A stretch of DNA of 24,199 bases from a virus (Duplodnaviria; Heunggongvirae; Uroviricota; Caudoviricetes), in IMG/VR virus record IMGVR_UViG_3300000288_000064. One strand, given 5' to 3'. The position numbers were made by a program, and so were the translations under genes. Below, in pieces: positions 2,518 to 24,199 of the stretch; position 1 is the stretch's first letter; each line of letters starts with the position of its first letter. The notes under the pieces are model-generated. The model had not been told where the DNA came from. It did no database searches and was given only the letters and a program-made list of their open reading frames with translations.

Positions 2518-2533
2518 TGTGTAGGAGGCGCTG

Positions 2534-3253: not shown

Positions 3254-3444
3254 TCATCGTGTGGTTGATGGTGTTGTTATGCAGAGTGTATTCACTGTGT
3301 TCTGTAGCGTCGCTCGCTGGCTGTCTGTGGGGGAGCACGAGCATCGTTTCATCGTCCGGCAGAATTGGGTCCTTCTGGCCAAAAGCGTTGGATGCGGGTC
3401 ATTCGAACCCCGATATTCGGCTAGCTAAACGTGAAAAAAGTTAG

Positions 3445-4951: not shown

Positions 4952-4956
4952 ACCTC

Positions 4957-6813: not shown

Positions 6814-6824
6814 AGGAAATATAA

Positions 6825-7064
6825 ATGAACAATGAAGCATTTTCTCTGACTGAAGCCAGAGAGATGTTATCTGTCTGGCGGGAAGCATATCGCGCTATTG
6901 CTATTGGCGGTCAGTCATATAAATTTGGTACGCGGCAGTTAACTCGTGCGGATTTATCAGAAGTCAGAAAAGAGATGGATTACTGGCGTAATGAAGTAGA
7001 AAGATTATCAGCAGGTGTACGCCGAGGCCCACGAATTAAACGAGTGGTGATAAGAGATTTATGA
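6825..7064 (+). CDS. gpW-like head-tail joining (head completion) protein
   Basis: 79 aa between large terminase and portal; C-terminal VRRGPR and central DLSEVRKEM resemble lambda gpW (RRRGP; DLKKYIAELE). GAGGA RBS about 7 nt upstream. Confidence 0.65.
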   Translation: MNNEAFSLTEAREMLSVWREAYRAIAIGGQSYKFGTRQLTRADLSEVRKEMDYWRNEVERLSAGVRRGPRIKRVVIRDL

Positions 7065-9692: not shown

Positions 9693-9701
9693 GGTGAGTT
9701 T

Positions 9702-10085
9702 ATGCGAGAGTCTTTTTCATTTGAACCAGATAATCTGATTATTTCTGGTGGTATGCCAGCAATTCCAGCAAGTATTAAACTTGCCAGCGGTAAAGTAAAA
9801 CGGGGTGAGTTACTTGCTTTTGTCAGTATTGATCAGACAACAAATGTTGTCACTGTGGCGCCAATAAATCTCTCTGGTGAAGGGGAGGCAAAAGAACCGT
9901 ATTGTATCGCTCAACACAATATTGATGCGACTGATTCAGCGCAAGTCGGAACAGCATGGCTGACCGGAATGTTCAATGCACATGCGGTTATCCTTCCTGA
10001 ATCAGCAAAAGTTGCCGATGTATATCTGGCTTGCCGGAAGGTTGGAATATTCCTTAATACCGCACAACAAAATCCATCTGCATAA
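9702..10085 (+). CDS. head decoration protein (lambda D-like)
   Basis: 127 aa directly upstream of the major capsid gene; size and position match the lambda D family; AAGGTGAG RBS. Confidence 0.65.
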   Translation: MRESFSFEPDNLIISGGMPAIPASIKLASGKVKRGELLAFVSIDQTTNVVTVAPINLSGEGEAKEPYCIAQHNIDATDSAQVGTAWLTGMFNAHAVILPESAKVADVYLACRKVGIFLNTAQQNPSA

Positions 10086-10105
10086 TATAAAGAGGTCGTA
10101 TTTTT

Positions 10106-11149
10106 ATGCCGAATATTGATATTTTTGAACGACGTACGATGCTTGAGCCTGTTATTCAGAATTTCAAGGCTCGTCGTTTTCTTCTTCGTACCTTTTTTCC
10201 TGGTGTTCAGACCTTTAATACAAAGAAAGTTGATCTGGATTTTGTTCGCGGTGGCCGTACTATGGCTCCGTTTGTTGGTAAAGGTTTTGGCTCAAAAACC
10301 GTTGAGCGACGCGGCTTTGTAACGAGAACTCTGGAGCCACCACTTGTTGCACCTGATTTGGTAACAACAGCCGAGCTGCTTTTAAACAGGCTTCCGGGTG
10401 AGAATATTTACAACGCAAAATCGCCAGCAGAACGAGCCGCCGAGCAATTAGGTAAAGATTTGCTTGAGCTTGATGAAATGGTTAACCGCCGTGAAGAATG
10501 GATGTGTGCACAAGTCTTGTTTACGGGGCAGGTTGATATTGTTGGTGAAGGAGTGGATGACACAGTTTATTTTTGGCCTGAAGAGGAAGGAGATAAACCA
10601 TATCTTGAACTGACAGGTGATGATTTATGGAGTGCAGCAAAATCAGATCCGTTAGTCAATGTTCGCAACTGGAAACGTCGGGTATCACTAACTTCAGGTT
10701 TTACACCTCGTGTTGCCGTAATGGGCGCAAAAGTTGTTGATGCCTTCGTTAAAAATGAAGCAGTAACTAAATATCTTGATAATCGCCGAAAAGAGCTTGG
10801 GTATATTGAGCCTAAAGAGTTAGAAGAAGGCGTAACTCATTATGGCAATCTTGAAGGTGTCGATTTTTATGGTTACGACGAACTTATTCGCAATGATAAA
10901 ACAGGAAAACCTGAACCATTAGTACCGGAAGATAAGATCCTCTTTGGCTCTCCTGGTCGAGGAACGATGCTGTATGGTGCTGTAGAGCTTGTAGATGACG
11001 CCGAAAAGACTCTAACGATTGTTGAGTCACCACGAGTTCCAGACACTTGGGTAACTCGTAAGCCGGCTGGCCGTTATGTTGCCATGAAGTCATCTCCACT
11101 GCCTAATCCTGGTGTGGCTGATGCCTATCTGGTGGCTAAGGTGGTTTAA
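10106..11149 (+). CDS. major capsid protein (lambda E family)
   Basis: 347 aa; N-terminal FLLRTFFPG and LNRLPGEN segments align by eye with lambda gpE (FLRLFFRES; LRRLPDED); AAGAGG RBS. Confidence 0.9.
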   Translation: MPNIDIFERRTMLEPVIQNFKARRFLLRTFFPGVQTFNTKKVDLDFVRGGRTMAPFVGKGFGSKTVERRGFVTRTLEPPLVAPDLVTTAELLLNRLPGENIYNAKSPAERAAEQLGKDLLELDEMVNRREEWMCAQVLFTGQVDIVGEGVDDTVYFWPEEEGDKPYLELTGDDLWSAAKSDPLVNVRNWKRRVSLTSGFTPRVAVMGAKVVDAFVKNEAVTKYLDNRRKELGYIEPKELEEGVTHYGNLEGVDFYGYDELIRNDKTGKPEPLVPEDKILFGSPGRGTMLYGAVELVDDAEKTLTIVESPRVPDTWVTRKPAGRYVAMKSSPLPNPGVADAYLVAKVV

Positions 11150-11542
11150 ATGGCCAGACTGATTAAAAACATTGATACGATAAGCCACGGCTCGCTAAAA
11201 GCGGGCCGTTTGCTTAATGGGCTAATGGATAACTCCAGAATTGCCGAACTGATTGCGTCAGGACATGCTATTGCCACCGAAGAGGATGGTGATTTGGCAT
11301 CGGCTGGGGGCTATGATGCTGCTAAGTTAGCTTTTGAGCATGGATACGCATCTGCTGTTAATGATGCTGTGGACGCGGGGTTGATTACGCGAACGGAGGC
11401 GGGTAGCTGTGTATTCGAGGTTGAGTTTGAGGATGATGGCGGCAATGAGGAAATGGTTGCTGATGATTCATCTGAATCTGTAGCTACTTCTGATACCAGT
11501 AATGCGAAAAAATCAACGCAAAAAAAAGGTAATAAGAAGTAA
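11150..11542 (+). CDS. hypothetical protein (130 aa), positionally equivalent to lambda FI
   Basis: Coupled to the capsid stop; acidic C-terminal segment followed by a Lys-rich tail (KKSTQKKGNKK). No recognisable motif. Confidence 0.5.
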   Translation: MARLIKNIDTISHGSLKAGRLLNGLMDNSRIAELIASGHAIATEEDGDLASAGGYDAAKLAFEHGYASAVNDAVDAGLITRTEAGSCVFEVEFEDDGGNEEMVADDSSESVATSDTSNAKKSTQKKGNKK

Positions 11543-11886
11543 TGAACTCCTTCAAAGAGGTTATAGCGCAAGATATTTCTGCAATATTCCTCAATGAAAA
11601 AGAGTTTGCCGATACATATAACATAGACGGCAAGGATATCCTTGCCGTTATTGATACAGACCTTATTCATGAGCGGAATAAACGCTCATATGCTGAGTTT
11701 GCAGAGGGAATAAATCAGGGGCAAATAATATTATTTGTTTCAAGAAAAGATTTTCCTGTTCTCCCTGTCAAAGACCAGTCAATGAAAATCAACGGTAAAA
11801 ATTATATTGTTGATGAAGTATCAGATAATGTTGGTGTATTGGAAATAACTCTCACTGTTAATACTAACAGAGGAATGCCGATTTGA
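11542..11886 (+). CDS. putative head-tail joining protein (lambda FII-like)
   Basis: 114 aa; C-terminal pattern KINGKNYIVDEVSDNVGVLEITL resembles lambda FII (TIGEENFWVDRVSPDDGGSCHLWL); TAATG overlap upstream. Confidence 0.5.
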   Translation: MNSFKEVIAQDISAIFLNEKEFADTYNIDGKDILAVIDTDLIHERNKRSYAEFAEGINQGQIILFVSRKDFPVLPVKDQSMKINGKNYIVDEVSDNVGVLEITLTVNTNRGMPI

Positions 11887-12368
11887 TTAATCTTTTGATA
11901 GATGCAATAAAAAATCGGTTGGAACATGAGGTTTTCCATGATTTATTAGTGCAGGGGCCTCCTTATGATGAAACAGACAGCGATATTAAATTGTTTGTTC
12001 CAACAATATTTAAAGGGTACTTGCCTCCTAAATCACAACCATCTCCAGATAAACCGCCAGAATTTCCTCATGTGATTATCAGGCCCACGGAAGGAGGAAT
12101 GCAGCCTGAAACGGATGAAGTTAAGGTTAAGTTTCTTCTAGGTGGTTTTTGTGAGGACCATACTGGATATGAATGGGTAATGGCTCTTCTTGAAAGGATG
12201 ATGTTTCATTTTCAGGAGAAGCCTTTACTTGAAGAGAAATTTCTCTTTCAGGGTGATATCAGATGGCGAATGTTTGATGATCAACCATATCCATATTGGA
12301 TAACGGAAGCAACTGGAACGTGGCTAGTATTAAAGCCTCAGAATATTCAGTCTCAGGAGTTTATCTAA
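11883..12368 (+). CDS. hypothetical protein (161 aa), possible neck or tail-completion protein
   Basis: ORF with TTG start overlapping the upstream stop, AGAGGA about 9 nt upstream; assignment is positional only. Confidence 0.4.
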   Translation: MINLLIDAIKNRLEHEVFHDLLVQGPPYDETDSDIKLFVPTIFKGYLPPKSQPSPDKPPEFPHVIIRPTEGGMQPETDEVKVKFLLGGFCEDHTGYEWVMALLERMMFHFQEKPLLEEKFLFQGDIRWRMFDDQPYPYWITEATGTWLVLKPQNIQSQEFI

Positions 12369-12659
12369 ATGGCTAATAAGAAAAGTAGTAAAGAAGATAT
12401 AGAAAAGAAGGAAGATGTTGCTCAAACATTTGTATATATAGGGCCAACAATCCCTCAACTCTCAATTTTGAAGCATAAACTATTTAAGAATGGCTTATCT
12501 CCAGAGTGTGAAAAATTAATATCACATATTCCTGGTGCAAAGTGTTTGTTTGTGGCAACCAGTGATTTTTCAGATGCAGAAAAAAGACTTTCTGATAAAA
12601 CCAGTGTCGAGTATGTAATGTACTCTAGAGTTTCTTCTTCTATCATGGAGATTAAATAA
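12369..12659 (+). CDS. hypothetical protein (96 aa), low-GC, Lys/Glu/Ser-rich
   Basis: ATG-initiated ORF coupled to neighbours on both sides; no motif recognised. Confidence 0.45.
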   Translation: MANKKSSKEDIEKKEDVAQTFVYIGPTIPQLSILKHKLFKNGLSPECEKLISHIPGAKCLFVATSDFSDAEKRLSDKTSVEYVMYSRVSSSIMEIK

Positions 12660-14122
12660 TGGGATATCGCCACGGTATTTATATATCTGAGCTGGCTACA
12701 TCTATAACTCCTCCAGTACAAGTTAGTGCTGGGTTGATTGTCGCATTTGGTACAACTCCTGTTAATCAGTTAGAAGATCCAGCCTCAGCGGTAAATAAAC
12801 CTATCATTGCTTATACATACGCAGAGGCCGTATCTAAAATAGGATATAGCACAAACTTCGAGAAATATACTTTAAGCGAAGTAATTAAAGTCGCATTTGG
12901 AATATATGGTGTTGCGCCAGTTGTATTTATCAATGTGCTTGATCCAGCAAAGCATAAGAAAGACGTAACTGATGAGGTAGTAAAACTTTCTGGCGGGAAA
13001 GGTACGCTCTCTAACGATGGTGTCTTATATAAATCTGTTGTTGTGAAAAAAGCAGATGGTGATTCTCCAGGGTTAACGGTTGATACAGATTATGTACTGG
13101 CGCTGGATGATAATGGCTATACGGTCATTACCGCTATTAGCGGAGGAAAAATTACTGAAAAAGACGCCACTCTTAAGGTTAGTTATACGCATCTTGATCC
13201 CGGGGCTGTAACTAAAAACGATATTATTGGTGGTGTGGATTCCAACACTAAAGCGAATACGGGGCTTGAGTTACTGTCGGATGTTTATCCCCGCTTCAAA
13301 CTAGTTCCAGGACAAGTGATTGCGCCTGGATTTAGTTCTGATAGTGAAGTTGGCCAGCTAATGGCGGCTAAAGCTGCGCTGATTAGTGAATTGTTCAAAG
13401 CAGAAGCTATCACCGATGCGCCGACTGATAAATCTACTATCAGTGATTATTCTGCTGTTCCTGAATGGAAGCAGAACAATAATCATATGGCAGCTAACCA
13501 GACAGTGTGCTGGCCGATGGTGAAACTTGGTGACAATATTTACCATCACTCAACCCATTTAGCGGCAGCAACATGCTTGCTGGATAGTCAGTATGGTGAT
13601 ATTCCATCACGTTCTCCGTCAAATATAAAACTACAGATGGACGGTGCTGTACGTAAAGATGGCAGTGAGGTATGGCTTAACATTAGCCAGGCAAACTACT
13701 TAAATGGACAGGGGATTGTAACAAGCCTTAATTTTGATGGTTGGAAATCATGGGGAAACCGTAATGCTATTTATCCAACATCTACAGACCCCAAAGACGC
13801 ATTTCGTGTTTGCCGACGTATGTTTAACTGGGTGGGTAATACGTTAATTCTTTCGCATTGGTCAAAAATAGACAATCCTGCAAACCGTCGATTAATTGAA
13901 TCGATTGTTACTAGTGCGAATATTTGGCTTAACGGCCTCACTGGTAATCAGGATATTGCAGGTGGTGTTGTTACCTTTGATCAGTCTGAAAACACGATTA
14001 CGTCATTGATGGACGGGATTGTTAAATTCCATGTAAAAATGACACCATTCTCACCTGCCAGAGATATAGAGTTCGTCATGGAATATAATCCTGATTATCT
14101 GCTGAACTTGTTTTCTGAATAA
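12659..14122 (+). CDS. contractile tail sheath protein
   Basis: 487 aa; N-terminus MGYRHGIYISE matches the characteristic sheath start (P2 FI-type, HHGVxVxE); immediately upstream of the tube gene. Confidence 0.9.
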   Translation: MGYRHGIYISELATSITPPVQVSAGLIVAFGTTPVNQLEDPASAVNKPIIAYTYAEAVSKIGYSTNFEKYTLSEVIKVAFGIYGVAPVVFINVLDPAKHKKDVTDEVVKLSGGKGTLSNDGVLYKSVVVKKADGDSPGLTVDTDYVLALDDNGYTVITAISGGKITEKDATLKVSYTHLDPGAVTKNDIIGGVDSNTKANTGLELLSDVYPRFKLVPGQVIAPGFSSDSEVGQLMAAKAALISELFKAEAITDAPTDKSTISDYSAVPEWKQNNNHMAANQTVCWPMVKLGDNIYHHSTHLAAATCLLDSQYGDIPSRSPSNIKLQMDGAVRKDGSEVWLNISQANYLNGQGIVTSLNFDGWKSWGNRNAIYPTSTDPKDAFRVCRRMFNWVGNTLILSHWSKIDNPANRRLIESIVTSANIWLNGLTGNQDIAGGVVTFDQSENTITSLMDGIVKFHVKMTPFSPARDIEFVMEYNPDYLLNLFSE

Positions 14123-14138
14123 ATAATAGGAGGTTGCT

Positions 14139-14660
14139 TTGAGCAATCAAATTCCTGAGAGACTTATTAACTTTACAGTATACGGTGAAGGAAACCGTAT
14201 TATCGGTGTTGCTGACGCAAAGCTGCCATCAATTGAGATGATGACAGAAACTGTTAGTGGTGCAGGTATCGCTGGAGAGCTTGAGAGCGGAACGCTGGGG
14301 CATTTCAAACCAATGACTGTCTCTCTTAAATGGCGAACTCTGACCTCTGCTGGTACAAAATTATTTCTATCCTCATCGCATCAGGTAGATTTTCGCGGTA
14401 GCCAGCAGGTTTATGATGCAGGAACAGGAAAATATAAAACGGTTCCTATTCGGGCTTCAATGAAGCTAAACCCTAAAAAACTGGATTTAGGTTCGCTACA
14501 GGTGGCAAAGGCTACTGATTCAGAGAATGAATTTGAAGTTCTCTATATCAAATTATTTATTGATGGAAAAGAAGTCCTGGAAATTGATAAGTTGAACTTT
14601 ATTTGTATCTTTGATGGTGAAGATATATTAAAAAGCGTTCGTGATGATTTAGGTTTATAA
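14139..14660 (+). CDS. tail tube protein (P2 FII-like)
   Basis: 173 aa; C-terminus ELVEIDKLNFICIFDGEDILKSVRDDLGL is close to P2 FII (ELVEIDTINMIEKVNGVDRLEQHRRNIGL). TTG start 5 nt after AGGAGG. Confidence 0.85.
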   Translation: MSNQIPERLINFTVYGEGNRIIGVADAKLPSIEMMTETVSGAGIAGELESGTLGHFKPMTVSLKWRTLTSAGTKLFLSSSHQVDFRGSQQVYDAGTGKYKTVPIRASMKLNPKKLDLGSLQVAKATDSENEFEVLYIKLFIDGKEVLEIDKLNFICIFDGEDILKSVRDDLGL

Positions 14661-14669
14661 GGTGACAAA

Positions 14670-14951
14670 ATGGAAACCGTTAAATTAAGTAAAGAATATC
14701 GTTTTGAAGACTTTGAGCCGGTGACTGAACTCAACCTTGATTTAGACAACCTAAAAGGCAGTGATATTTTAGAGGTATCGGACTTACTGCAATCTCAAGG
14801 GCATGTTTCAGTTCAAACATCACTTGATAATAAAGTCCATGCAGCCTTGGCTGCTCGCTGTATTGGTCGTCCAATAGAGTATCTGAATGGATTACCAGCG
14901 AAAGACTTTGTTAAAGTTTGTCAAAAGGTACAGAATTTTTTGCTCTCGTAG
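14670..14951 (+). CDS. tail assembly chaperone (P2 gpE-like), zero-frame product
   Basis: 93 aa between tube and tape measure genes; ends at TAG just past a TTTTTTG heptamer. Confidence 0.7.
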   Translation: METVKLSKEYRFEDFEPVTELNLDLDNLKGSDILEVSDLLQSQGHVSVQTSLDNKVHAALAARCIGRPIEYLNGLPAKDFVKVCQKVQNFLLS

Positions 14952-15100
14952 GTTTTGATGAGCAAAAACCTATTGATAAGCAAATAATGAGGGCCGCGAG
15001 TTCTCTATCTCAATCATCTCAATCAACACCTATATCCTACTGGCTTTCGCTTCGGTTGAGGCGAATCGTCGCATGGATTGACGTGTTTAATGAGGATTAA
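14670..15100 (+). CDS. tail assembly chaperone frameshift fusion (gpE+E-prime-like), predicted -1 product
   Basis: A -1 frame ORF (14918..15100) overlaps the 3' end of 14670..14951 and ends 5 nt before the tape measure start; the slippery heptamer sits in the overlap. Confidence 0.55.
14937..14943 (+). other. slippery heptamer T_TTT_TTG for programmed -1 ribosomal frameshift
   Basis: Read directly: zero-frame codons AAT TTT TTG at 14934..14942; a -1 slip from TTT-TTG continues into ORF 14918..15100. Confidence 0.55.
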
Positions 15101-15105
15101 TACTA

Positions 15106-17898
15106 ATGGCCAGCAATAAGAACTTTAAGCTGGCTTTTGAAATTGGCGGCAAAGTTGCCGCCTCTCTCCCCAAAAGTTTTACTACAGCTAATCAGGCTGT
15201 TGCTAAATTAAATGCAGAGCTTGCTGGATTAACGAAAGAACATGGGGAAATTCAAAAGCTACAATCTGTAAAAGTAAAGGTTGGACAGACTGCCCTCGAA
15301 TATCATAAAGCTGCCGCTCGCGTTGAAGAGTTACAGAAGCAAATAAAAAACACGGCCAATCCAACCAGAGCGATGCTTCGTGACTTTGAGAAGGCAAAAA
15401 CACATTCATCAAATTTACGAGCATCACTACGTTCTCAGCGTGAAGAACTGGCCGCTTTAAAGTCTGCCTATCAGGGAGCTGATACATCTGCCAGAGCTTT
15501 GGCCTCAAGAGAGAAAGAGCTTAAAGCCAGCATTGATCGTAATCGTGAGGCTCAGGCCCGTAGCGTTGAGCAGGTTAACCGCTACAGAACGGCTTTGGCT
15601 TTAGCCAGAGCAAATGTTCAGCAAGTGAAAAAACAGCAGGAGGAACTTAACCGGGCATTAGAAAAACAACGTATTGATAAAATTAACAGCTATAAAAATG
15701 CGTTGGCTGAAGCACGGAAAAATGTTCTTGCAGTAAAACGTGCTCAGGAGGAGTTAAACCGCGCGTTGGAAAGGCAGCGTGAATTGAAGCGAGAGCATCT
15801 TGGTGAGGCAAAGAGTCAACTTGTAAGGTCAGGATTACAAACTGGTGCTGTAGCGGCTGGTGCATTTGCTGCTGCTAACAATGCAGCAAATTTCAATCGT
15901 GAAAACAAAATGATTGGTCTTACGGCAGATATGAAGCCGGAAGAAGTTCAGGCGATGGGGCAGGCGATGCTTGTTACCGGAACGGCTACCAACCAGTTTG
16001 CATCTGATATTCAGGCCGCTCAGGGTTTTCTCGTCGCTGCTGGGCAGGATTATAAAGAGGCTCAGGCGAATCTACTAACTATTGGGCGAACAGCTACAGC
16101 TACTGGCTCTGATATCCTCGATGTCTCGAAAGCATCATTTACATTAAGTGACTCATTGAAGATTGATCCATCTCAAATGAAGTCTGCAATGGGGATTCTG
16201 GTTCAGGCAGGGAAAGAGGGGAACTTTGAATTTAAAGATATGGCCAAAAATCTTCCTGTGCTTGGTGCTCAGTTCCAGGCATTAAAAATGGGAGGTAAAG
16301 AAGCAGCCGCGACGATGGGTGCAGCTTTGCAGATAGCTCGCAAGGGGGCTGCAACTTCGGATGAGGCTGCTAATAATATGAACAACTTTTTGGCAAAAAT
16401 ACTTTCCCCTGAAACACTAAAAAAAGCAAAGAAAAATTTCGGTGTAGATTTATATAAAATTGTTACAACAGCGCAGAAAAAAGGGAAGAATCCATTCGAA
16501 GCTGCAATGCATTCTGTCATGAAAATGACTAAGAACGGAGATCAGAAGTTACTTGGTGAACTATTTGGCGATATGCAGGTTCAGAACTTTGTTCGTCCGA
16601 TGATTCAAAACTGGAAGGAATACCAGAGAATCAAAGCAACATCTCTTGGAGCTGGAAGTGCTGTTATTGACCGCGATTTTGCCAACATAACGAAAGATAA
16701 TGCGGAGCGATTGAAACAATTACGTATTCAGGCTAGCAATGCATCATTAAGTTTTGGTCAGGCCTTGCAACCTGCTTTGAATGCCGCGCTTAGTGTTTTG
16801 GTTCCGCTGATTACAAAAATTAGTGAATTTGTAGCTAACAACCCCAATTTTGTGTCTCAGATAGTGATGGCGGCAGGTGCGTTTCTAACCATGAAAAGTG
16901 TGGTTATAGCGTGTAGGGTAGCTATGCTGGCTTTATCTGTAGCGACAAAGCTAACACCCTTCGGGTGGATTCAGATGGCTATATCTGCGCTGGTTGCCGC
17001 AGGAATATTGCTCTATCAGAATTGGGATAAGATCAGAGATTATGCTGTCAGAGTTTGGCCTTCTGTTAAGGAATATACAGTTAAATCATTTGAGGCTATA
17101 AAAAACTTTATCTTAAACTTTGACCTCAATGGATGGATTATATCTATGTTTGGTAAAGCATGGGATTATCTTTCCAACATAAACTGGAGTTCGGCAGGAG
17201 TAAGAATTTACAGTACATTAATTAGTGCTTTTAAATGGATGTCTCCGCTTCCGTTCTTAATTAAAGCATTTAAAATTACAACAAATTACCTTTCTGGCAT
17301 TAACTGGAGCGAAACAGGAAAGAAAATCATAGATACACTGGTATCTGTTTTTATGCGTTTTTCACCAGTTGGACTCTTTATAAGAGCATTCCAATCTGTA
17401 ACGACTTATTTATCTGGAATAAACTGGAGTGAGTCAGGCGCAAAAATAATTGAGACGTTAATCACTGGGATAAAATCAAAAGCAAATGCTTTAATTAATG
17501 AAGTGAAAGGCGTTTTTTCTTCTGTACGTGAGTATTTACCGTTCTCTGACGCGAAAAAAGGTCCATTCTCACAGCTAACAAAGTCAGGTGGTGCAATAAT
17601 GACTACTCTGGCATCAGGTGTTAGCAGGAATAACAGCTTACAGAATGCAATAGCAAGCAAGTTCGGGCAATCAAATTTATCACCTCACGGGATATCTGCC
17701 GCTGGGACTTCTGGACCTCGCCAGAACGTTAACGCTGTGACTGGTGGAATAACCTATTCACCTGTAATCAATCTTCCGGCTGGTTCACCAAAGGAAACTG
17801 AGGCGGCAGCTAAAAGAGCATTAGATGCGGGATATTCTGATTTTGAGAAGAAATTGAGTGCTCATATGTTCCAACAACGGAGATTAAGTTTTGGATGA
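15106..17898 (+). CDS. tail tape measure protein
   Basis: 930 aa downstream of the chaperone pair; coiled-coil N-terminal third, hydrophobic segment and tandem repeats, all typical of tape measure proteins. Confidence 0.9.
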   Translation: MASNKNFKLAFEIGGKVAASLPKSFTTANQAVAKLNAELAGLTKEHGEIQKLQSVKVKVGQTALEYHKAAARVEELQKQIKNTANPTRAMLRDFEKAKTHSSNLRASLRSQREELAALKSAYQGADTSARALASREKELKASIDRNREAQARSVEQVNRYRTALALARANVQQVKKQQEELNRALEKQRIDKINSYKNALAEARKNVLAVKRAQEELNRALERQRELKREHLGEAKSQLVRSGLQTGAVAAGAFAAANNAANFNRENKMIGLTADMKPEEVQAMGQAMLVTGTATNQFASDIQAAQGFLVAAGQDYKEAQANLLTIGRTATATGSDILDVSKASFTLSDSLKIDPSQMKSAMGILVQAGKEGNFEFKDMAKNLPVLGAQFQALKMGGKEAAATMGAALQIARKGAATSDEAANNMNNFLAKILSPETLKKAKKNFGVDLYKIVTTAQKKGKNPFEAAMHSVMKMTKNGDQKLLGELFGDMQVQNFVRPMIQNWKEYQRIKATSLGAGSAVIDRDFANITKDNAERLKQLRIQASNASLSFGQALQPALNAALSVLVPLITKISEFVANNPNFVSQIVMAAGAFLTMKSVVIACRVAMLALSVATKLTPFGWIQMAISALVAAGILLYQNWDKIRDYAVRVWPSVKEYTVKSFEAIKNFILNFDLNGWIISMFGKAWDYLSNINWSSAGVRIYSTLISAFKWMSPLPFLIKAFKITTNYLSGINWSETGKKIIDTLVSVFMRFSPVGLFIRAFQSVTTYLSGINWSESGAKIIETLITGIKSKANALINEVKGVFSSVREYLPFSDAKKGPFSQLTKSGGAIMTTLASGVSRNNSLQNAIASKFGQSNLSPHGISAAGTSGPRQNVNAVTGGITYSPVINLPAGSPKETEAAAKRALDAGYSDFEKKLSAHMFQQRRLSFG
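15573..15782 (+). repeat. tandem duplication of about 33 codons inside the tape measure gene
   Basis: Protein RYRTALALARANVQQVKKQQEELNRALEKQR versus SYKNALAEARKNVLAVKRAQEELNRALERQR; the two DNA copies are clearly related. Confidence 0.6.
17158..17520 (+). repeat. three tandem repeats of about 40 codons (YLSxINWS motif) inside the tape measure gene
   Basis: AWDYLSNINWSSAG..., TNYLSGINWSETGKKIIDTL..., TYLSGINWSESGAKIIETL... recur at about 120-123-bp spacing. Confidence 0.6.
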
Positions 17899-18109
17899 TT
17901 ATAGAACGGTTCAAGGGGACTCATGGGATAGTATCGCTTTAAAGTTGTATGGTAATGAGTACCTGTCTTATCTTCTTATTGATGCTAATACTGAGCACCG
18001 CTTTACGGTGCTTTTTTCTGCGGGAATTATTCTTAAAGTTCCTGATGCTCCGGTTATGCCAATATCAGTAAACAATTTTCCTCCGTGGAGACGCAATAGT
18101 GTTACGTAA
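17891..18109 (+). CDS. tail protein X-like (LysM-like, P2 gpX family)
   Basis: 72 aa; MDDYRTVQGDSWDSIALKLYG aligns from residue 1 with P2 gpX (MKTFALQGDTLDAICVRYYG). TTG start 7 nt after GGAGA, overlapping the tape measure stop. Confidence 0.6.
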   Translation: MDDYRTVQGDSWDSIALKLYGNEYLSYLLIDANTEHRFTVLFSAGIILKVPDAPVMPISVNNFPPWRRNSVT

Positions 18110-19100
18110 AACGCTTTTTGATGTTATATATCAGAATGTAAATATTACCGCTCATATGTCACCTGATGTTTTGTCAATGTCTTATACAGATAATGAAGAT
18201 GGTCAGGTCGATGATATTTCTATTATATTAAAAAATGATGATGGGAAATGGTCTGGAGACTGGACACCTAAAAAGGGTGATTTTATTGATTTGAGCTTTA
18301 AGCCTATAAATCAAATCGTCCTTGAGTGCGGGAAATTCCAGGTAGATGGCATAACTTGCTCTGGACCACCTTCTGTGGTTGAGGTAACTGCTGTTTCTGT
18401 TCCTGTTTCATCAGGCATTAGACGTGATTTAAAAAGTAATGCATGGGAAAAAACAACTCTTAAAGATATAGCAACTTCTATAGCTAAATTAGCTAACCTT
18501 GAACTGTTGTTTCTTATTGATGGTGATAGTAATCCATATTATGCGCGTGAAGATCAAATGGAGGAAAGCGATTTAAAATTTCTCCATCGACTTTGCCAGG
18601 ATGAAGGGTTGTCGTTAAAGGTCACTGATAGCCAATTAATAATATTTGCTCAAGAGATGTTTGAGCAAAAAGATCCTATCGCTACGCTTACGTTAGGTAT
18701 TGATGAGATAATCAGATATAGCTTTAGCACACAATCTACAGATTTGTATAAAAGTTGCACGTGCAAATATCGCGTACCTAAAAAAAGAAAGTCGCTTTCG
18801 TATACTTGGGTAGATCCATCCGTAGAAGAAGGGTCGAATCTTAAGATAAGAAAACTGGTAGCTAATTTAGATGAAGCAAAACGTAAGGCAAAGGCTGCTT
18901 TGCGGCTTAAAAATAGATATCAAAATACCGGATCTTTAGTATTGGTTGGAGACACCAGATTGGTAGCTGGTGTAACTATAAATCTGGAGGGATTCGGTTC
19001 ATTTTCTGGAAAATATCTTATATCGAAAGCTGTGCATTCAATTGGGACTAGTGGTTATACCACCTCGATTGATGTCCGAAGAGTAATTAATGGGTATTAA
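18099..19100 (+). CDS. tail protein D-like (late control D family, baseplate hub)
   Basis: 333 aa directly after the gpX-like gene, the canonical X-D pairing; GTG start 8 nt after GGAG. Confidence 0.8.
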   Translation: MLRKTLFDVIYQNVNITAHMSPDVLSMSYTDNEDGQVDDISIILKNDDGKWSGDWTPKKGDFIDLSFKPINQIVLECGKFQVDGITCSGPPSVVEVTAVSVPVSSGIRRDLKSNAWEKTTLKDIATSIAKLANLELLFLIDGDSNPYYAREDQMEESDLKFLHRLCQDEGLSLKVTDSQLIIFAQEMFEQKDPIATLTLGIDEIIRYSFSTQSTDLYKSCTCKYRVPKKRKSLSYTWVDPSVEEGSNLKIRKLVANLDEAKRKAKAALRLKNRYQNTGSLVLVGDTRLVAGVTINLEGFGSFSGKYLISKAVHSIGTSGYTTSIDVRRVINGY

Positions 19101-19102
19101 TT

Positions 19103-19723
19103 ATGAATGATTTAGAAACATTATTACGTCAGACTATAAGAGTTGGCGTTGTTTCTGATATTGATGATGGTGATGTTACAGCAAGAGTTACTTTCGATGA
19201 TCAGGATAACGTCACTTCGGCAAAGTTATCAGTTATTGTGAAAAATACAGATAAGAATGCTGATTACTGGATGCCAGATATTGGTGAGCAAGTTTTGTGT
19301 ATCTTTCATCCCGCGGGGCCGCAACAAGGTTTTATTCTTGGTAGTTTTTATGATGAAACACAGAAGCCGCCATCTAATACTGTTAATAAACGCGTCATTA
19401 GATTTAATAACGGAACTCGTATTGAGATAGACAGAGAATCTAATTTACTCCTTGTTGATGCTGTCGGAGATGTAACCATTAAGGCTACAGGAACCGTAAC
19501 TATTGATGCTCCAGAAACCATCATTACCGGAAATGCTACAGTTGAAGGATTACTAACCTTCAAAGGTGGAATGAAAGGATCTTCTGCTGGAGGTGTTGCA
19601 GCTACAATTTCTGGGAATGTTAAGGTTGTTGGTGGTGATATAGATGTTGATGGGATTAAATCTAAAGGCCACCATCACACAGCTCAGGGGGAATACGCTC
19701 CGACAACGGAGGCTCAGGCATGA
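19103..19723 (+). CDS. baseplate assembly protein V (central spike)
   Basis: 206 aa; N-terminal OB-fold-like region and a Gly-rich beta-helix-like C-terminus (VTIKATGTVTIDAPETIITGNATVEG), typical of gpV spikes. Confidence 0.8.
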   Translation: MNDLETLLRQTIRVGVVSDIDDGDVTARVTFDDQDNVTSAKLSVIVKNTDKNADYWMPDIGEQVLCIFHPAGPQQGFILGSFYDETQKPPSNTVNKRVIRFNNGTRIEIDRESNLLLVDAVGDVTIKATGTVTIDAPETIITGNATVEGLLTFKGGMKGSSAGGVAATISGNVKVVGGDIDVDGIKSKGHHHTAQGEYAPTTEAQA

Positions 19724-20187
19724 TTGTGGGTATGCTTGGTACAATGCCTTTTGTTGCCTCATCAATAGTGGTGAATACGTTCAACAATTTTAAAAGGACG
19801 TCAAAGCGTCGTGTAGCGCGCCATGATGTTATTGGGCTTAAACCTGTTCTGGAGGATATAGGTCCAGATCTGGATGAAGTTAGTTTTAATATGCGGTTGG
19901 ATACAACACTTGGCATTGTTCCATTGGCTGCGCTTTCATTACTTAGGACAATGCAATCAATTCAGGAAGTAAATCCTGTTGTAATTGGTATTCAGTATTT
20001 TGGTAATTTTATAATTACAGATATAGAGGAATCATGGACTTATTTCGGTCCAACTGGGAATCCACGAGTGATTATCGTCGGCATTAAATTACAGGAAGTC
20101 GGACAGACCTCTCTGAAAGAAGCATTAGTTGATATTGCTGGCAATATAGAGTCAAAAACTAGAAGTGCGTTAGGTAAATTATTATGA
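19720..20187 (+). CDS. phage tail protein, tentatively gpU-like
   Basis: 155 aa, ATGA-coupled to gpV; N-terminus MIVGMLGTMPF resembles the gpU-family start. Family assignment is tentative. Confidence 0.5.
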   Translation: MIVGMLGTMPFVASSIVVNTFNNFKRTSKRRVARHDVIGLKPVLEDIGPDLDEVSFNMRLDTTLGIVPLAALSLLRTMQSIQEVNPVVIGIQYFGNFIITDIEESWTYFGPTGNPRVIIVGIKLQEVGQTSLKEALVDIAGNIESKTRSALGKLL

Positions 20188-20504
20188 ATAATACGTTTAC
20201 CATATCATCACCTTCTTACTCGATTGATTGGTCGCCCAAAACAGTTGTAGAAGAAGTTTTGCAAAATGTCTCTACTATTATTAATACTCAAATTGGCACT
20301 GTACCATATGCCAGAAAATTAGGAATTAATTCAAGTCTTGTTGATAGCCCTAGTCCAATTTTTATTGCTACAGCAACACGAGAAATAATTCAAAAAATTA
20401 GTGAGTTTGAGCCTAGAGCGATTATCCATTCTGTTACTTTTGAAAGAACGGACGTTTCTGATGGTTTTATTAGGCCAAAACTTGTGATAGGAGTTAGAGA
20501 ATGA
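20184..20504 (+). CDS. baseplate wedge protein (gpW/gp25-like)
   Basis: 106 aa immediately upstream of the baseplate J gene; size and pattern fit the GPW/gp25 family. Confidence 0.7.
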   Translation: MNNTFTISSPSYSIDWSPKTVVEEVLQNVSTIINTQIGTVPYARKLGINSSLVDSPSPIFIATATREIIQKISEFEPRAIIHSVTFERTDVSDGFIRPKLVIGVRE

Positions 20505-21625
20505 CGTTGCCGCGTGGTGGTTTGCCAGATATTACTTTCGCAGATTCTAACCCGACTGATATAACAACTCGTTCAATCAGGGCTTTTGAGAGTATAACAG
20601 GTGAAACATTAGCACCTGCTGATCCACGTAGATTATTCATCTTATCATTGTGTGAGATTATTATACAGCAAAGAAAAGCTATCGATTTTTCTGCAAAACA
20701 AAACCTTCTTACATATGGTGAAGGTGAATATCTCGACCATATAGGCTATCTGACGGATACGCCTAGGCTGGAAGCTCAATCTGCCTTGACTACATTTGAG
20801 TTTAATCTGTCAACAAAATTATCGGGGATATATACAATACCTGCTGGCACTCAAGTTTCAACTGGAAATGGTGTTATTTTCCAAACAGATATTTTGTTGG
20901 AAATACCTGCTGGGAAAACAGTTGGTACAGTCTCAGGATATGCTGTTATACCTGGTTTATCTGGGAATGGCTTTTTACCAGGGCAAATAAATGAGTTGGT
21001 GACTCCGTTGCCGTATGTTTCCAGAGTAAGGAATGTAACAACATCTAATTCTGGTGCTGATACGGAGTCAGATGATAATTATGCTGAAAGAATAAAACTG
21101 TCGCCGGAAAAACTGTCTACAGCAGGGCCGGAGGATTCTTATAAATATTGGACAAGAACAGCCAATCAGAATATAAAAGATGTGAATGTATATACACCAT
21201 CGCCCGGAATTGTAGAAATCCGTTCTTTGTTAGAGAACGGAGATATACCTTCTGATGAACTATTAGAGCAGATAAATAGCGTTCTCTCTGCAACTAATAT
21301 TCGACCATTCACAGATAAAGTTCTTGTTAAGAAACCAGAGAGCATTGAATACGATATAATAATTAAATACTGGATTAACTCATCGGACAAAAACAGAACA
21401 ACTTTAATTCAAAGTGAGGTTGAGAAAGCTATTGATGAGTATAAACAATGGCAACGTTCGGTTATGGGAAGAGATATAAATCCAGATGAAATTATTCAAC
21501 GTTTAAAAAATGCTGGGGCTAAAAGATTAGAAATATCAAGTCCTGTTTTTAATGTGGTTGGAGAGACACAGGTCGCCAGAGAGAGAAATATAAATTGCCA
21601 GTATGCGGGGTTAGAGGATGGCTGA
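20501..21625 (+). CDS. baseplate J-like protein
   Basis: 374 aa between the gpW-like and gpI-like genes, the conserved W-J-I order; ATGA overlap upstream. Confidence 0.85.
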   Translation: MTLPRGGLPDITFADSNPTDITTRSIRAFESITGETLAPADPRRLFILSLCEIIIQQRKAIDFSAKQNLLTYGEGEYLDHIGYLTDTPRLEAQSALTTFEFNLSTKLSGIYTIPAGTQVSTGNGVIFQTDILLEIPAGKTVGTVSGYAVIPGLSGNGFLPGQINELVTPLPYVSRVRNVTTSNSGADTESDDNYAERIKLSPEKLSTAGPEDSYKYWTRTANQNIKDVNVYTPSPGIVEIRSLLENGDIPSDELLEQINSVLSATNIRPFTDKVLVKKPESIEYDIIIKYWINSSDKNRTTLIQSEVEKAIDEYKQWQRSVMGRDINPDEIIQRLKNAGAKRLEISSPVFNVVGETQVARERNINCQYAGLEDG

Positions 21626-22199
21626 TATCTTTAATGTTAGCTTGTTGGATGTTTTACCTCCTAACTTAGCTAGCGATCCCAACGTGATAGCTATGTCGAA
21701 AGCTATTGATGATGAACTACAAGCAATTAACAATTTAATATATAAGACAGAAATATATAGCGTTGTTGATAACCTGGACTCAGTTGTTCTCGATCATTTA
21801 GCTTGGCAATGGAATGCTGATACATGGAGGGATAGTTGGACTGTATCGTTAAAGCGTTCTGTTTTTAAATCAATAATACGAACAAAGCGAATAAAGGGTA
21901 CAAGGGCAGCGGTTGAAGATGTAGTAAATAGCTTGGGTGGAGAGGTAAACATAACAGAATGGTTTGAAACATCACCACCTGGCGAACCATATACAGCCTC
22001 AATTGTTGCTTCGATTAACTCTTTTGATGGTGCTGTTCCTTCGAAAGAGATGTTGGAGGATACGTTAAGAAGTATCAAGAGTGCAAAGTCGGCAAGAACA
22101 CTATTTACATTTTCGCAAGCAACCAATGTTTCAGGTGGTGTTGGTATTGTCGGTGCTTTCCAGCCTGTGTCTTATGTACGATTAATTGGTGAGTGCTAA
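21618..22199 (+). CDS. tail protein I (P2 gpI-like)
   Basis: 193 aa; LAWQWNADTWRDSW...GTRAAVEDVVNSLGGEVNITEWFETSPPGEPYT aligns with P2 gpI (LAWAFSVDRWDEKW...GTIGAIRRVVEPLGYLINVTEWWENSDPPGTF). Confidence 0.85.
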   Translation: MADIFNVSLLDVLPPNLASDPNVIAMSKAIDDELQAINNLIYKTEIYSVVDNLDSVVLDHLAWQWNADTWRDSWTVSLKRSVFKSIIRTKRIKGTRAAVEDVVNSLGGEVNITEWFETSPPGEPYTASIVASINSFDGAVPSKEMLEDTLRSIKSAKSARTLFTFSQATNVSGGVGIVGAFQPVSYVRLIGEC

Positions 22200-22229
22200 T
22201 TTGCGATTTGTTAATCCAAGGAATTAAGC

Positions 22230-24199
22230 GTGAGTAAATTATTATTTACGATGACTGACGCCGGGCGTAAGGCGCTGGTTAATGCCAACAAGACTGGAAC
22301 AAATAAAGTTGAGATCGTTTCTGTTGGTTTAGGTAGTAGATATTATGCCACATCAACCACACAAACAAAAATAACAGATGAAATAAAGCGACTTACCACA
22401 ATAGGAGGCAAAGTCGTTTCTCCTGATACCATTCATGTAACTGCGAAGGATGATAGTAAAGATGAGTATGTTGTCCATACAATAGGTTTGTATACAAATA
22501 AAGGAACATTGTTTGCTGTATACTCGCAAGAACAAGTAATAATAAATAAAGCATCTTCTACAATTGCTTTAATATCAAGTGATATAGCAATTAAAAATCT
22601 TGATACTAAAAACATTACATTTGGTGATGTTGAGTTTATTAACCCTCCCGCAACCGAAACTGTTGTTGGAGTAGCAAGATTTGCTAATGAACAAGAAATT
22701 GATGCAGGTACAGATGATTCCCTGGCTGTTTCAGCAAAGCGGCTTAAGCAAGCTATTGTAAAACATGAGCAATCACGTAATCATCCTGATGCAACTTTAA
22801 CATCAAAAGGCATTGTTCAACTCAGTAATGCCACCAATAGCACGTCTGAAAAGCTCGCAGCGACGCCTAAGGCTGTTAAGGCTGCATATGACCTGGCTAA
22901 CGCTAAATACACCGCACAGGACGCTACCACGGCGCGAAAAGGGATTGTTCAGCTCAGTAGTGCCACTAACAGTACGTCTGAAACGCAGGCGGCAACGCCA
23001 AAAGCGGTCAAGGCAGCAAATGACAACGCAAATTCACGTCTGGCGAAAAATCAGAACGGTGCAGATATCCAGGATAAATCAGCTTTTCTGGACAATGTTG
23101 GCGTTACCAGCCTGACGTTTATGAAAAACAATGGCGAAATGCCGCTTGATGCTGATCTGAATACGTTTGGTCCTGTTAAGGCTTATTCAGGTATCTGGTC
23201 TAAAGCAACATCCACCAACGCAACACTGGAGAAAAATTTCCCGGAAGATAATGCTGTCGGTGTGCTTGAGGTTTTTGCTGCCGGCAATTTTGCAGGTACG
23301 CAACGCTTTACCACGAGAGACGGCAATGTATACATGCGTAAACTCGCCAATAAGTGGAATGGCACTGATGGTCCGTGGGGCGTATGGCGTCACACTCAAT
23401 CTGCTACCCGCCCTTTGAGTACGACTATAGACCTGAATACGCTTGGAGCCGCCGAGCATCTTGGTTTATGGCGTAACAGTAGCTCAGCTATAGCTTCATA
23501 TGAACGCAATTATCCAGAGGAAGGCGGCTTTGCTCAGGGGATGCTTGAGATCCTCGAAGGCGGAAATTATGGAAGAACGCAACGTTATACCACTCGCCGT
23601 GGAAATATGTATGTCCGCTGTCTTGCGGCAAGCTGGGATGCATCAAATCCGCAGTGGGAACCGTGGTTAAGAGTCGGTCATCAGTCAGAGAGTCGTTATT
23701 ACGACGGTGATTTGAATGATGTAACCTCACCAGGTATTTACAGCGTTACAGGTAAAGCGACCAACGGTCCAATACTGGACGGAAACGGCGTGACAGTCCT
23801 CGGTATTCTGGAGGTGTTGAGGCGCTTTGATGGTGTTAATGTATGGCAGCGTTATACAACTGCCGGAACAGGTACAACCCTTAAAGGCCGCACCTTTGAG
23901 CGCGTCTTTACCGGCAGCTCATGGAGCGAATGGCGGGAAGTCTACACCTCGTATTCACTTCCCCTGAATCTGGGTATCGGCGGTGCTGTGGCAAAGCTCA
24001 CCAGCCTGGACTGGCAGACCTACGATTTTGTGCCGGGCAGTCTGATAACCGTTCGGCTTGATAACATGACCAATATTCCCGACGGTATGGACTGGGGCGT
24101 CATTGATGGCAACCTGATAAACATCTCAGTCGGTCCGAGTGATGATTGGGGTTTGAGGGCCAATGGAACGAAAACGTACGTTTATGGTATAACTTATTG
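22230..24199 (+). CDS. tail fibre protein (P2 gpH-like N-terminus), 3'-truncated by the window edge
   Basis: Frame 0 is open from GTG 22230 (AAGGA 7 nt upstream) to the window end, so it is absent from the ORF track. My translation starts MSKLLFTMTDAGRKALVNANKTG and contains HEQSRNHPDATLTSKGIVQLSNATNSTSEKLAATPKAVKAAYDLANAKYTAQDATTARKG, very close to the P2 H signature. Confidence 0.85.
   Translation, partial: MSKLLFTMTDAGRKALVNANKTGTNKVEIVSVGLGSRYYATSTTQTKITDEIKRLTTIGGKVVSPDTIHVTAKDDSKDEYVVHTIGLYTNKGTLFAVYSQEQVIINKASSTIALISSDIAIKNLDTKNITFGDVEFINPPATETVVGVARFANEQEIDAGTDDSLAVSAKRLKQAIVKHEQSRNHPDATLTSKGIVQLSNATNSTSEKLAATPKAVKAAYDLANAKYTAQDATTARKGIVQLSSATNSTSETQAATPKAVKAANDNANSRLAKNQNGADIQDKSAFLDNVGVTSLTFMKNNGEMPLDADLNTFGPVKAYSGIWSKATSTNATLEKNFPEDNAVGVLEVFAAGNFAGTQRFTTRDGNVYMRKLANKWNGTDGPWGVWRHTQSATRPLSTTIDLNTLGAAEHLGLWRNSSSAIASYERNYPEEGGFAQGMLEILEGGNYGRTQRYTTRRGNMYVRCLAASWDASNPQWEPWLRVGHQSESRYYDGDLNDVTSPGIYSVTGKATNGPILDGNGVTVLGILEVLRRFDGVNVWQRYTTAGTGTTLKGRTFERVFTGSSWSEWREVYTSYSLPLNLGIGGAVAKLTSLDWQTYDFVPGSLITVRLDNMTNIPDGMDWGVIDGNLINISVGPSDDWGLRANGTKTYVYGITY
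22806..23018 (+). repeat. direct repeat of 27 codons (KGIVQLS-N/S-ATNSTSE..AATPKAVKAA) in the tail fibre
   Basis: Two copies at 22806..22886 and 22938..23018, 132 bp apart. Confidence 0.7.
23150..23960 (+). repeat. three tandem repeats of about 90 codons in the distal tail fibre
   Basis: Units begin DLNTFG / DLNTLG / DLND and each contains L-E-V/I...G..QR-F/Y-TT..G..Y.R...W. Confidence 0.55.

Follow-up and report, generated by a model that had tools for sequence, protein, structure and literature searches.

Gene order and features of the locus

The stretch of DNA analysed here (24,199 nucleotides, IMG/VR virus record IMGVR_UViG_3300000288_000064; hereafter the window) is half of an approximately 48-kb phage-plasmid of Escherichia coli with a P2-type contractile tail. 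The phage-plasmid contains repA, parA, and ParB-like genes, and its structural genes are AT-rich. At the 3' end of the window, the baseplate genes J and I are followed by a tail fibre gene, within which several blocks, two junctions, and the end of a transposon are situated:

20501-21625, + strand: baseplate gene J (Pfam Baseplate_J, E = 9e-54)
21618-22199, + strand: baseplate gene I (Pfam Tail_P2_I, E = 5.5e-27)
22230-24199, + strand: tail fibre gene with GTG start; 639 native codons, continuing through the transposon end past the window edge
22230-22754, + strand: block A, lineage-specific N-terminal domain, residues 1-175 (delimited by composition and relatives)
22747-22755, + strand: junction J1, older module boundary at the GC step, where homology ends or starts
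22755-23024, + strand: block B, HEQSRNHPDA motif and two Phage_fiber_2 repeats (PF03406, E = 3.3e-41, in two stretches)
22986-23002, + strand: junction J3, latest crossover of the distal cassette (switch of informative sites)
23025-24147, + strand: block C, distal module with three knob-like units, common to P2-like prophages
24148-24199, + strand: end of a Tn3-family transposon, following 24147 (38-bp terminal inverted repeat and 14 subterminal bases)

An intact near-identical relative is plasmid NZ_CP032259.1 of E. coli AR_0067 (hereafter the twin), which is collinear with the window up to 24147 (99.6-99.99% identity) and possesses a fibre of 948 amino acids (99.9% identical over 22230-24153) with a Caudo_TAP gene (tfa chaperone; Pfam E = 1e-39) directly 3' of the fibre gene. 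Altogether, 27 complete E. coli replicons carry this fibre; given this and the collinearity of the twin up to 24147, an assembly chimera was rejected. A search of the fibre protein against NCBIfam gave no match.

Concerning the baseplate genes and the proximal fibre part (20501-22739), DNA matches are found only in the phage-plasmid family, i.e., in the phages Escherichia vB_EcoM-613R2 and 473R2 and Yersinia vB_YpM_39/41/44, and in E. coli plasmids of 46-52 kb. No family name for this group was found in the literature, and vB_EcoM-613R2 and 473R2 are listed as ParB carriers in one paper. An assignment to the pSLy3 group was considered and dropped, since pSLy3 belongs to the SSU5 supergroup according to published work. 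At the protein level, J and I show 30-31% identity to J and I of P2, and gpV, W, J, and I show 25-31% identity to their counterparts in P2-like phages.

Base composition of the tail fibre gene

The baseplate genes between 18099 and 22199 exhibit a GC content of 34-40%; J and I, directly 5' of the fibre gene, belong to this low-GC backbone (38-39%, third-position GC 27-29%). The first part of the fibre gene (22230-22739) is 35.9% GC, with 200-nt windows ranging from 31 to 38.5%. An earlier note on this DNA had described this part as backbone-like with 25-33% GC; the likeness to the baseplate genes holds, but the actual value is a few points higher. Equally, the jump that it had reported for the distal part is present, but the 50-53% given there compares to 49.2% for 22740-24199, with 200-nt windows between 44 and 56.5%.

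The position of the switch, claimed to be around 22740, lies inside the support interval of a changepoint analysis: the maximum likelihood estimate is 22830, with 2-log-likelihood support from 22640 to 22860. The log-likelihood ratio of this changepoint (33.0, for 18000-24199) is far above the values obtained from 1000 shuffles of 60-nt blocks (mean 4.2, maximum 13.1), which confirms that the composition switch is real, near the position claimed for it, and beyond chance. As also claimed, the HEQSRNHPDA motif, starting at residue 179, is situated at the switch. Within the window, the step is unusual, not unique: among 21000 other positions, 134 show a step of at least 0.134, and the largest of these lie around 3936 and 11448.

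Third-position GC rises from 22% to 46% across the step (22.3% in 22230-22754, 41.1% in 22755-23024, and 47.3% in 23025-24147), with overall GC contents of 36.4% in block A and 49.7% in block C, and the proportion of GC-ending to AT-ending codons changes from the proximal to the distal block (chi-square on the counts, p = 8e-7). Since third-position GC shifts at synonymous sites too, the GC step is not an amino-acid effect; the profile is a step, synonymous sites included, and not the smooth course that would have spoken against the earlier reading.

Relatives of the three fibre blocks

The identity to P2-like phages differs among the blocks: block A has no significant match, whereas block B reaches 83% and block C 96%. 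Separate searches of the two fibre halves, as the earlier note had proposed, likewise yield different nearest relatives, namely the phage-plasmid family for the proximal half and Peduovirus and P2-like prophages for the distal one.

Block A is presumed to attach the fibre to the baseplate, by analogy to the N-terminal part of P2 gpH; BLASTP gives no significant match to gpH itself. Its protein relatives are fibre N-termini of P2-like phages of Burkholderia, Stenotrophomonas, Halomonas, and Zymomonas (40-47% identity), and nearly all of these matches stop at query residues 170-175. For the tail-collar domain PF12571, this block gives a weak match below the cut-off (E = 0.008; 16.6 bits vs the required 23 bits). 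Scans of species-representative genomes with the single sequence and with an alignment found no relatives of this domain.

Block B is a conserved linker used for recombination, showing 83% amino acid identity to P2 gpH. Its Phage_fiber_2 repeats are also present in the DNA as direct repeats of 88 nt with a period of 132 nt (22805-22892 and 22937-23024, approximately 80% identical), visible by BLAST self-comparison only; the output of Tandem Repeats Finder was empty for the fibre gene. The number of repeat copies varies between 1 and 4 among the relatives examined.

Block C opens with the motif KNQNGADIQDK (23045-23080), and self-comparison reveals its three knob-like units, two of which are clearly related (37% identical, E = 5e-20), the third more weakly. 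Compared to H variants of Peduovirus, the block is 94% identical in nucleotides and 96% in amino acids. Similarly close matches are obtained for the distal fibre with H genes of E. coli and Yersinia Peduovirus (88-94%), for the fibre with a P2-like prophage of E. coli 4/0 (95% over 1776 nt), and for 23000-24147 with P2-like prophages in E. coli chromosomes (up to 97.6%). Among 5426 E. coli genomes, 396 carry block C, which occupies 440 places in chromosomes vs 34 in plasmids; the chromosomal copies range from approximately 80% to 97.6% identity, and the phage-plasmid copies listed are 98.3-100% identical (four sampled; 27 near-full-length matches). With a third-position GC of approximately 47%, vs 31% in the tail genes of the phage-plasmid and 58-68% in the baseplate genes of P2, block C is compositionally foreign to P2 too. 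The H genes of P2-like phages have a GC content below that of their own baseplate genes.

Module junctions and alternative distal cassettes

Two junctions of different age are nested within the fibre gene. At the older one (J1), homology to a Salmonella-type relative ends at 22747, and nucleotide homology to H genes of the P2 family (75-80%) begins at 22755-22764; the 28 relatives from IMG/VR fall into two classes that part right after the residues AVSAKRLK. This boundary is defined by relatives of 70% identity and the start of P2 homology, not by a near-isogenic pair. The GC step is common to every E. coli member of the family, so the J1 boundary is older than the latest exchange.

The latest crossover of the distal cassette (J3) is situated in a 17-bp interval (22986-23002) in the second Phage_fiber_2 repeat, approximately 250 bp 3' of the GC step. 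Between 22900 and 23029, there are 41 informative sites: the 35 sites up to 22985 are of the sibling type in the window, except for 22967, which matches neither type, and from 23003 on, all six are of the P2-prophage type. The interval lies within an 87-bp stretch (22938-23024) that is homologous in both parental types. The earlier claim that the receptor-binding part was replaced at the conserved motif holds, with a refinement: a module boundary does exist at the step (22747-22755), but the latest crossover took place approximately 250 bp downstream, in the second copy of the motif. The reading of the composition switch as a product of recombination is supported, with the junctions being nested.

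Related elements possess other distal parts. The siblings vB_YpM_39, the plasmid of ATCC 25922, and pP136-7 have 22230-23024 in common with the window and continue with three other distal modules; sibling pMB9880_3 departs at 22900. Counting the type of the window, the E. coli phage-plasmids have five distal types, which join at 22900 and 23024; the sibling plasmids carry at least four cassettes other than that of the window, some of them invertible. Salmonella-type relatives, which depart at 22747 and exhibit the GC step as well, provide a sixth distal class joined at that position.

The elements vB_YpM_39, the ATCC 25922 plasmid, and pP136-7 combine gix-like sites and a Hin-type invertase with tfa and variable fibre parts in inverted orientation. 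The two gix-like sites of vB_YpM_39 have 2 and 3 mismatches, and in the siblings, the gix-like inversion site is directly followed on its 3' side by the KNQNGADI motif. No gix-like site with up to 7 mismatches to the 26-mer occurs in 22000-24199 of the window, and the twin contains neither an invertase gene nor an inverted alternative cassette; because of these two absences, the fibre of the window lineage is regarded as fixed and non-switching. The replaced cassette occupies 14682-18132 in NZ_CP032259.1; beyond it, sibling homology starts again close to the 3' end of the invertase gene of the siblings. This right-hand junction was mapped in NZ_CP032259.1 only, and no shared motif was identified there.

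Transposon end

Collinearity with NZ_CP032259.1 stops at 24147, and a transposon end begins at 24148. The earlier note had proposed to look past the window for a chaperone gene or an invertible segment; a transposon is found there instead. Its end at 24148-24199 was missed in the first reading of the sequence. The 38-bp terminal repeat GGGGTTTGAGGGCCAATGGAACGAAAACGTACGTTTAT, which starts with GGGG, occupies 24148-24185, and the last 55 bases of the window match thousands of plasmids. In CP057480.1 and NZ_CP009167.1, the same 38-mer constitutes the left repeat, and an inverted right copy (36 of 38 positions) is situated approximately 5.98 kb apart; these reference elements encode a Tn3-family transposase (annotation: ISEc63 family) along with a resolvase and a P-loop ATPase. 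The exact junction of fibre and transposon (24090/24100-24199) is absent from the plasmids of PLSDB and from all complete E. coli genomes.

The fibre is cut after residue 639, such that the part forming a T4 gp37-like tip in the twin is removed. Therefore, this copy is very probably unable to make adsorption-competent virions; the remainder of the gene may be situated on the far side of the transposon.

Origin of the mosaic fibre

We interpret the fibre as a nested mosaic, in which the N-terminus of the lineage was joined to a distal cassette from a P2-like prophage and which was later hit by the insertion of a Tn3-family transposon (probability about 0.85). Residues 1-175 would be the lineage's own domain, with the composition of the backbone; from HEQSR onward, the gene would consist of modules circulating among enterobacterial phages at approximately 48-50% GC: the linker containing both Phage_fiber_2 repeats comes first, then the KNQNGADI motif, and then the three knob-like units. 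In intact relatives, these are succeeded by the T4 gp37-like tip and the tfa chaperone gene. The GC step around 22750 would mark the border between native and circulating sequence. The present cassette was probably installed via homologous recombination with the fibre gene of a P2-like prophage, by RecA or a phage recombinase and with the crossover in 22986-23002; on the right side, the same replacement would have taken away the sibling-type invertible segment together with the invertase. Later, the Tn3-family transposon would have entered the fibre gene after 24147.

The direction of transfer, from prophage to phage-plasmid, is inferred and not proven, because the composition of the distal module fits neither backbone. 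A third pool may have been the source for both lineages, or a phage-plasmid or another lineage may have given the module to the P2-like prophages, with the arrangement of the window being ancestral; besides the module's own composition, the low GC content of P2-like H genes relative to their baseplate genes agrees with such a reversed or third-source transfer. We nevertheless consider it unlikely: chromosomal places of block C far outnumber plasmid places in E. coli (440 vs 34), and the diversity of the chromosomal copies (approximately 80-97.6%) contrasts with the uniformity of the phage-plasmid copies listed (98.3-100% identical), suggesting a recent single entry into plasmids. Moreover, the sibling homology of the twin resumes near the 3' end of the invertase gene, as a derivation of the window type through replacement would predict.

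Even less probable is the capture of the cassette by a Hin- or Gin-type invertase at gix-like sites. The siblings do possess a gix-bounded invertible segment with a Hin-type invertase, and the start of the distal module at KNQNGADI, which lies 3' of the gix-like site in these siblings, would be compatible with an invertible-cassette origin; however, 22000-24199 is devoid of gix-like sites (with up to 7 mismatches to the 26-mer), the intact twin is without an invertase gene, and a switch of informative sites within 87 bp homologous in both parents is the signature of homologous exchange. That no transfer occurred, and that the GC step merely reflects amino acid composition and purifying selection on the Ala/Thr/Gly-rich motif and shaft of an always-resident gene, can practically be discounted: GC also rises at codon position 1 (47% to 53-54%) and codon position 2 (40% to 48-51%) and the motif is conserved at the protein level across many fibre genes, but third-position GC doubles (22% to 41-47%, p = 8e-7), the identity to P2-like prophage fibres amounts to 94-97.6% for the distal DNA, vs 25-31% to P2 for the neighbouring baseplate proteins, and otherwise near-identical plasmids carry unrelated distal parts.

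Going beyond the nested mosaic itself, the Phage_fiber_2 array and KNQNGADI might act as splice adaptors, through which the AT-rich lineage repeatedly samples cassettes from the chromosomal P2-like prophages of its host, and the Tn3-family insertion might represent a phage-plasmid caught while losing its infectivity and turning into a plain plasmid. We offer this as a tentative idea, to which we would give somewhat less than even odds.

The breakpoint map is unusually clean, with the latest crossover located within 17 bp of a Phage_fiber_2 repeat. It also reveals that genes pass between chromosomal P2-like prophages and a family of plasmid-borne phages often found in clinical E. coli; this bears on host-range prediction for these elements. 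Concerning annotation, the fibre copy in the window is to be treated with caution as truncated by a transposon, and the element is probably not infectious.

Comparison with known systems

Ever since P2, Mu, P1, and lambda were compared in the early 1990s, it has been textbook knowledge that segments of tail fibres are exchanged as modules at conserved motifs. For this reason, the present case carries little weight for general biology, and its use is local: the fibre of the window is an ordinary case of long-known fibre swapping. The gpH of P2 and its Peduovirus variants are the classic example of fibre segments that passed horizontally between phages without close kinship (Haggard-Ljungquist et al. 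1992, cited through PMC8986868).

The terminal repeat GGGGTTTGAGGGCCAATGGAACGAAAACGTACGTT is, we assume, similar to that of Tn1000/gamma-delta. Among the ISEc63-family elements with this repeat, the 38 bp and the 14 subterminal bases are identical in the window and CP057480.1; whereas the reference element is approximately 5.98 kb long, the window holds 52 bases of its transposon, up to the contig end.

According to Sandmeier's model (cited through PMC8986868), fibre cassettes are acquired at inversion regions. The siblings share the invertible arrangement with Mu (G segment, Gin), P1 (C segment, Cin), and e14 (Pin), whereas the window lineage is without it. Residues 205-296 of the window fibre are similar to Mu S (PDB 5yvq, E = 9e-16). 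In the twin, fibre residues 716-948, which lie outside the window with its gene cut at 24147, match the tip of T4 gp37 (PDB 2xgf, E = 8e-82); this tip is a further module from an unrelated phage type.

The organization found in the window is most similar to that of P2: the fibre gene is situated 3' of J and I, contains the HEQSR motif and Phage_fiber_2 repeats, and is followed by tfa in the twin, and H of the P2 variants OU784746 and LR595870 is 94% identical to the distal 1.2 kb of the fibre gene. Despite this similarity, there are clear differences between them: the N-terminal 175 residues of the window fibre lack significant BLASTP similarity to gpH, the backbone has a GC content of approximately 39% vs approximately 58% in P2, and P2 is an integrating phage, whereas the window belongs to a prophage that resides on a plasmid and has repA and parA.

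Phage-plasmid and fibre gene

Window 55-24147 is collinear with NZ_CP032259.1, a 49.9-kb circular plasmid of E. coli AR_0067 (hereafter the intact twin), at an identity of 99.6% over 55-8342 and of 99.99% over 8343-24147. Since this plasmid carries repA and parA together with terminase, portal, capsid and P2-type contractile tail genes (besides ParB-like genes and a toxin-antitoxin pair), it is a phage-plasmid. The 62 relatives in PLSDB measure 32-94 kb (nearly all 46-52 kb) and come almost all from Escherichia, three Salmonella plasmids being ~70% identical; the phages vB_EcoM-613R2, 473R2 and Yersinia vB_YpM_39/41/44 belong to the same family. The genes concerned are:

20501-21625, + strand: Baseplate_J gene, upstream of the fibre gene
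21618-22199, + strand: Tail_P2_I gene, between Baseplate_J and fibre genes
22230 to past the window end, + strand: fibre gene, GTG start, directly 3' of the Tail_P2_I gene

Window 1-54 is without match in the twin (its 41580-41633) or in any locus compared, and could be a variable region or the end of another element. The window head (1-3426) has 49.7% GC vs 41.4% elsewhere, the changepoint at 3426 (log-likelihood ratio 41) exceeding that of the fibre gene in strength; ParB/Srx-like genes occupy the matching region of the twin. From capsid through tail/baseplate genes, GC in the twin is ~37-46% per 1-kb window (mostly 38-42%), the remainder being mostly at 44-53%. Relatives are annotated, at coordinates equivalent to 17891-18109, with a small overlapping gene, labelled 'tail protein X', that lies between those for the tape measure and gpD; it is too short for the 80-aa ORF list of the window.

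Composition step and junctions

GC within the fibre gene rises from 35.9% (22230-22739) to 49.2% (22740-24199), which confirms the step described in the earlier note, although its figures (25-33% proximal, 50-53% distal) were a few points off; the 25-33% it gave for the baseplate genes does not hold, as these measure 34-40%. The maximum-likelihood changepoint lies at 22830 (support interval 22640-22860), with a log-likelihood ratio of 33.0, whereas 1000 shuffles of 60-nt blocks reached 13.1 at most; equally large steps occur at 0.6% of other window positions. Third-position GC increases from 22% in the N-terminal block to 41% in the motif block (HEQSRNHPDA and two Phage_fiber_2 repeats) and 47% in the distal block, pooled tail genes having 31%, so that the step is not an amino-acid effect.

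The same note had placed a recombination event at the conserved motif. This interpretation is supported, but the junctions form a nested set, of which the most recent falls in repeat 2 and not at the step:

22747-22755, + strand: J1, coinciding with the composition step
~22900: J2, where plasmid pMB9880_3 diverges past the first repeat
22986-23002, + strand: J3, most recent crossover, within Phage_fiber_2 repeat 2

Concerning J1, a Salmonella-type relative loses homology to the window at 22747, and P2-family H genes show nucleotide homology (75-80%) from 22755-22764 onward. All 28 IMG/VR relatives fall into two classes directly after AVSAKRLK (QAIVKHEQSR... vs GELDKKANLDSPNLTGTPTAPT...), both exhibiting the step in GC and third-position GC right there; the step at J1 is common to every E. 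coli family member examined. Concerning J3, the window shares 92% identity with the siblings vB_YpM_39, ATCC 25922 plasmid and pP136-7 until 23023-23024, beyond which these continue with three unrelated distal parts. In a three-way comparison of window, siblings and the E. coli 4/0 prophage, informative sites are sibling-type through 22985 save one and all prophage-type from 23003, and the latest crossover therefore lies within 22986-23002, ~250 bp downstream of the step. Repeat copy number ranges from 1 to 4 among relatives, which fits unequal exchange inside the repeat array.

The linker between the repeats (22860-22979) is only 82-92% identical to vB_EcoM-613R2/473R2, though both sides are 100% identical (DLADGKYTAQNATTAQKG against DLANAKYTAQDATTARKG); here the window resembles the sibling plasmids, and the linker may be a small gene-conversion patch.

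Relatives of the two halves

The two halves differ in their nearest relatives. Baseplate genes and proximal fibre have DNA-level matches only within the phage-plasmid family. The next protein relatives of the N-terminal 175 residues are fibre N-termini of P2-like phages of Burkholderia, Stenotrophomonas, Halomonas, Zymomonas and Vibrio (40-47% identity), with alignments stopping at residues 170-175 in nearly all cases; against P2 itself, the N-terminus gave no significant protein match. The distal half is 88-94% identical to H genes of E. coli and Yersinia Peduovirus variants and up to 97.6% to chromosomal P2-like prophages, the match to the E. coli 4/0 prophage (95% over 1776 nt) starting at 22938 and extending beyond what the window contains.

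Amino-acid identity to P2-like phage
gpV, W, J, I: 25-31%
fibre motif block: 83%
fibre distal block: 96%

Cassette and direction of transfer

The variable cassette of the intact twin (14682-18132) comprises the distal fibre, the chaperone gene tfa (Caudo_TAP, E = 1e-39) and, on the opposite strand, an acetyltransferase gene. The latter is convergent with tfa, just 3' of it; its top NCBIfam matches are serine O-acetyltransferase models (E = 7e-23), every one below cut-off. In place of this cassette the siblings have a different distal fibre with tfa, a tfa' and variable fibre part in inverted orientation, and a Hin-type invertase gene; homology to the twin picks up again close to that gene's 3' end. 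In vB_YpM_39 the invertible segment is flanked by 83-nt inverted repeats with gix-like sites; these repeats end in QKNQNGADIPDK.

L002 (vB_YpM_39) 11084-14144: invertible fibre region, gix-like sites and Hin-type invertase
Window 23045-23080, + strand: KNQNGADIQDK motif, directly after repeat 2

The window's lineage has lost this invertible region. As KNQNGADIQDK is present and no gix-like site was found in the window fibre region, the distal module has the look of a cassette that was once variable and has since become fixed in a non-invertible gene.

The module's third-position GC (46-47%) matches neither backbone (58-68% in P2 baseplate genes, 31% in phage-plasmid tail genes); it is foreign to P2, too. 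Of 5426 complete E. coli genomes, 396 have the module, at 440 sites in chromosomes and 34 on plasmids. Its abundance and widely varying identity in chromosomes, vs near-identical plasmid copies among those listed, together with the point where homology resumes at the siblings' invertase, favour entry into the phage-plasmid from the P2-like prophage pool.

Transposon insertion

Collinearity with all intact relatives ends at 24147; window 24148-24199 is the end of a transposon of the Tn3 family, which has inserted into the fibre gene.

24148-24185, + strand: 38-bp terminal inverted repeat, Tn3-family transposon, GGGGTTTGAGGGCCAATGGAACGAAAACGTACGTTTAT

In CP057480.1 and NZ_CP009167.1, the same 38-mer and a 36/38 inverted copy enclose ~5.98 kb encoding a Sll1717-family P-loop ATPase, a resolvase and a Tn3-family transposase. 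The ATPase (Sll1717 family, E = 1e-86) weakly resembles an anti-phage protein at its N-terminus (E = 1e-14, far below cut-off). The fibre reading frame runs on past the insertion as WGLRANGTKTYVYGITY; assuming that the rest of the element is like that in these two records, the frame would end at a TGA completed one base beyond the window, and the predicted truncated fibre would keep 639 of 948 native residues, without collar domain and tip. The fibre-transposon junction was found in none of the PLSDB plasmids and complete E. coli genomes searched. The window probably ends at 24199 through a contig break inside the repeated element. The view of the gene as a recombined mosaic stands, with the correction that it is disrupted.

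In the Salmonella Weltevreden plasmid NZ_LN890526.1 (L012 6637-8757), the fibre gene appears frameshifted: the annotation gives a hypothetical protein of 399 aa, after which ~900 nt lack an open frame up to tfa. This may be a further case of an inactivated fibre within this element family.

Comparison with known systems

The GC step is confirmed and its interpretation as recombination supported, with three corrections: junctions are nested with the newest in the second repeat, the module is foreign to P2 also, and a transposon disrupts the gene. The siblings' invertible fibre region (L002; also L009, L010) resembles the Mu G segment, and the C-terminal end of the intact twin's fibre strongly resembles the receptor-binding tip of T4 gp37 (PDB 2xgf, E = 8e-82):

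L006 (fibre locus of the intact twin) 9776-10474: T4 gp37-like tip, residues 716-948

Modular exchange of fibre segments is a classic phenomenon in the literature cited in PMC8986868, and the window's fibre mosaic constitutes a further instance of this known kind.
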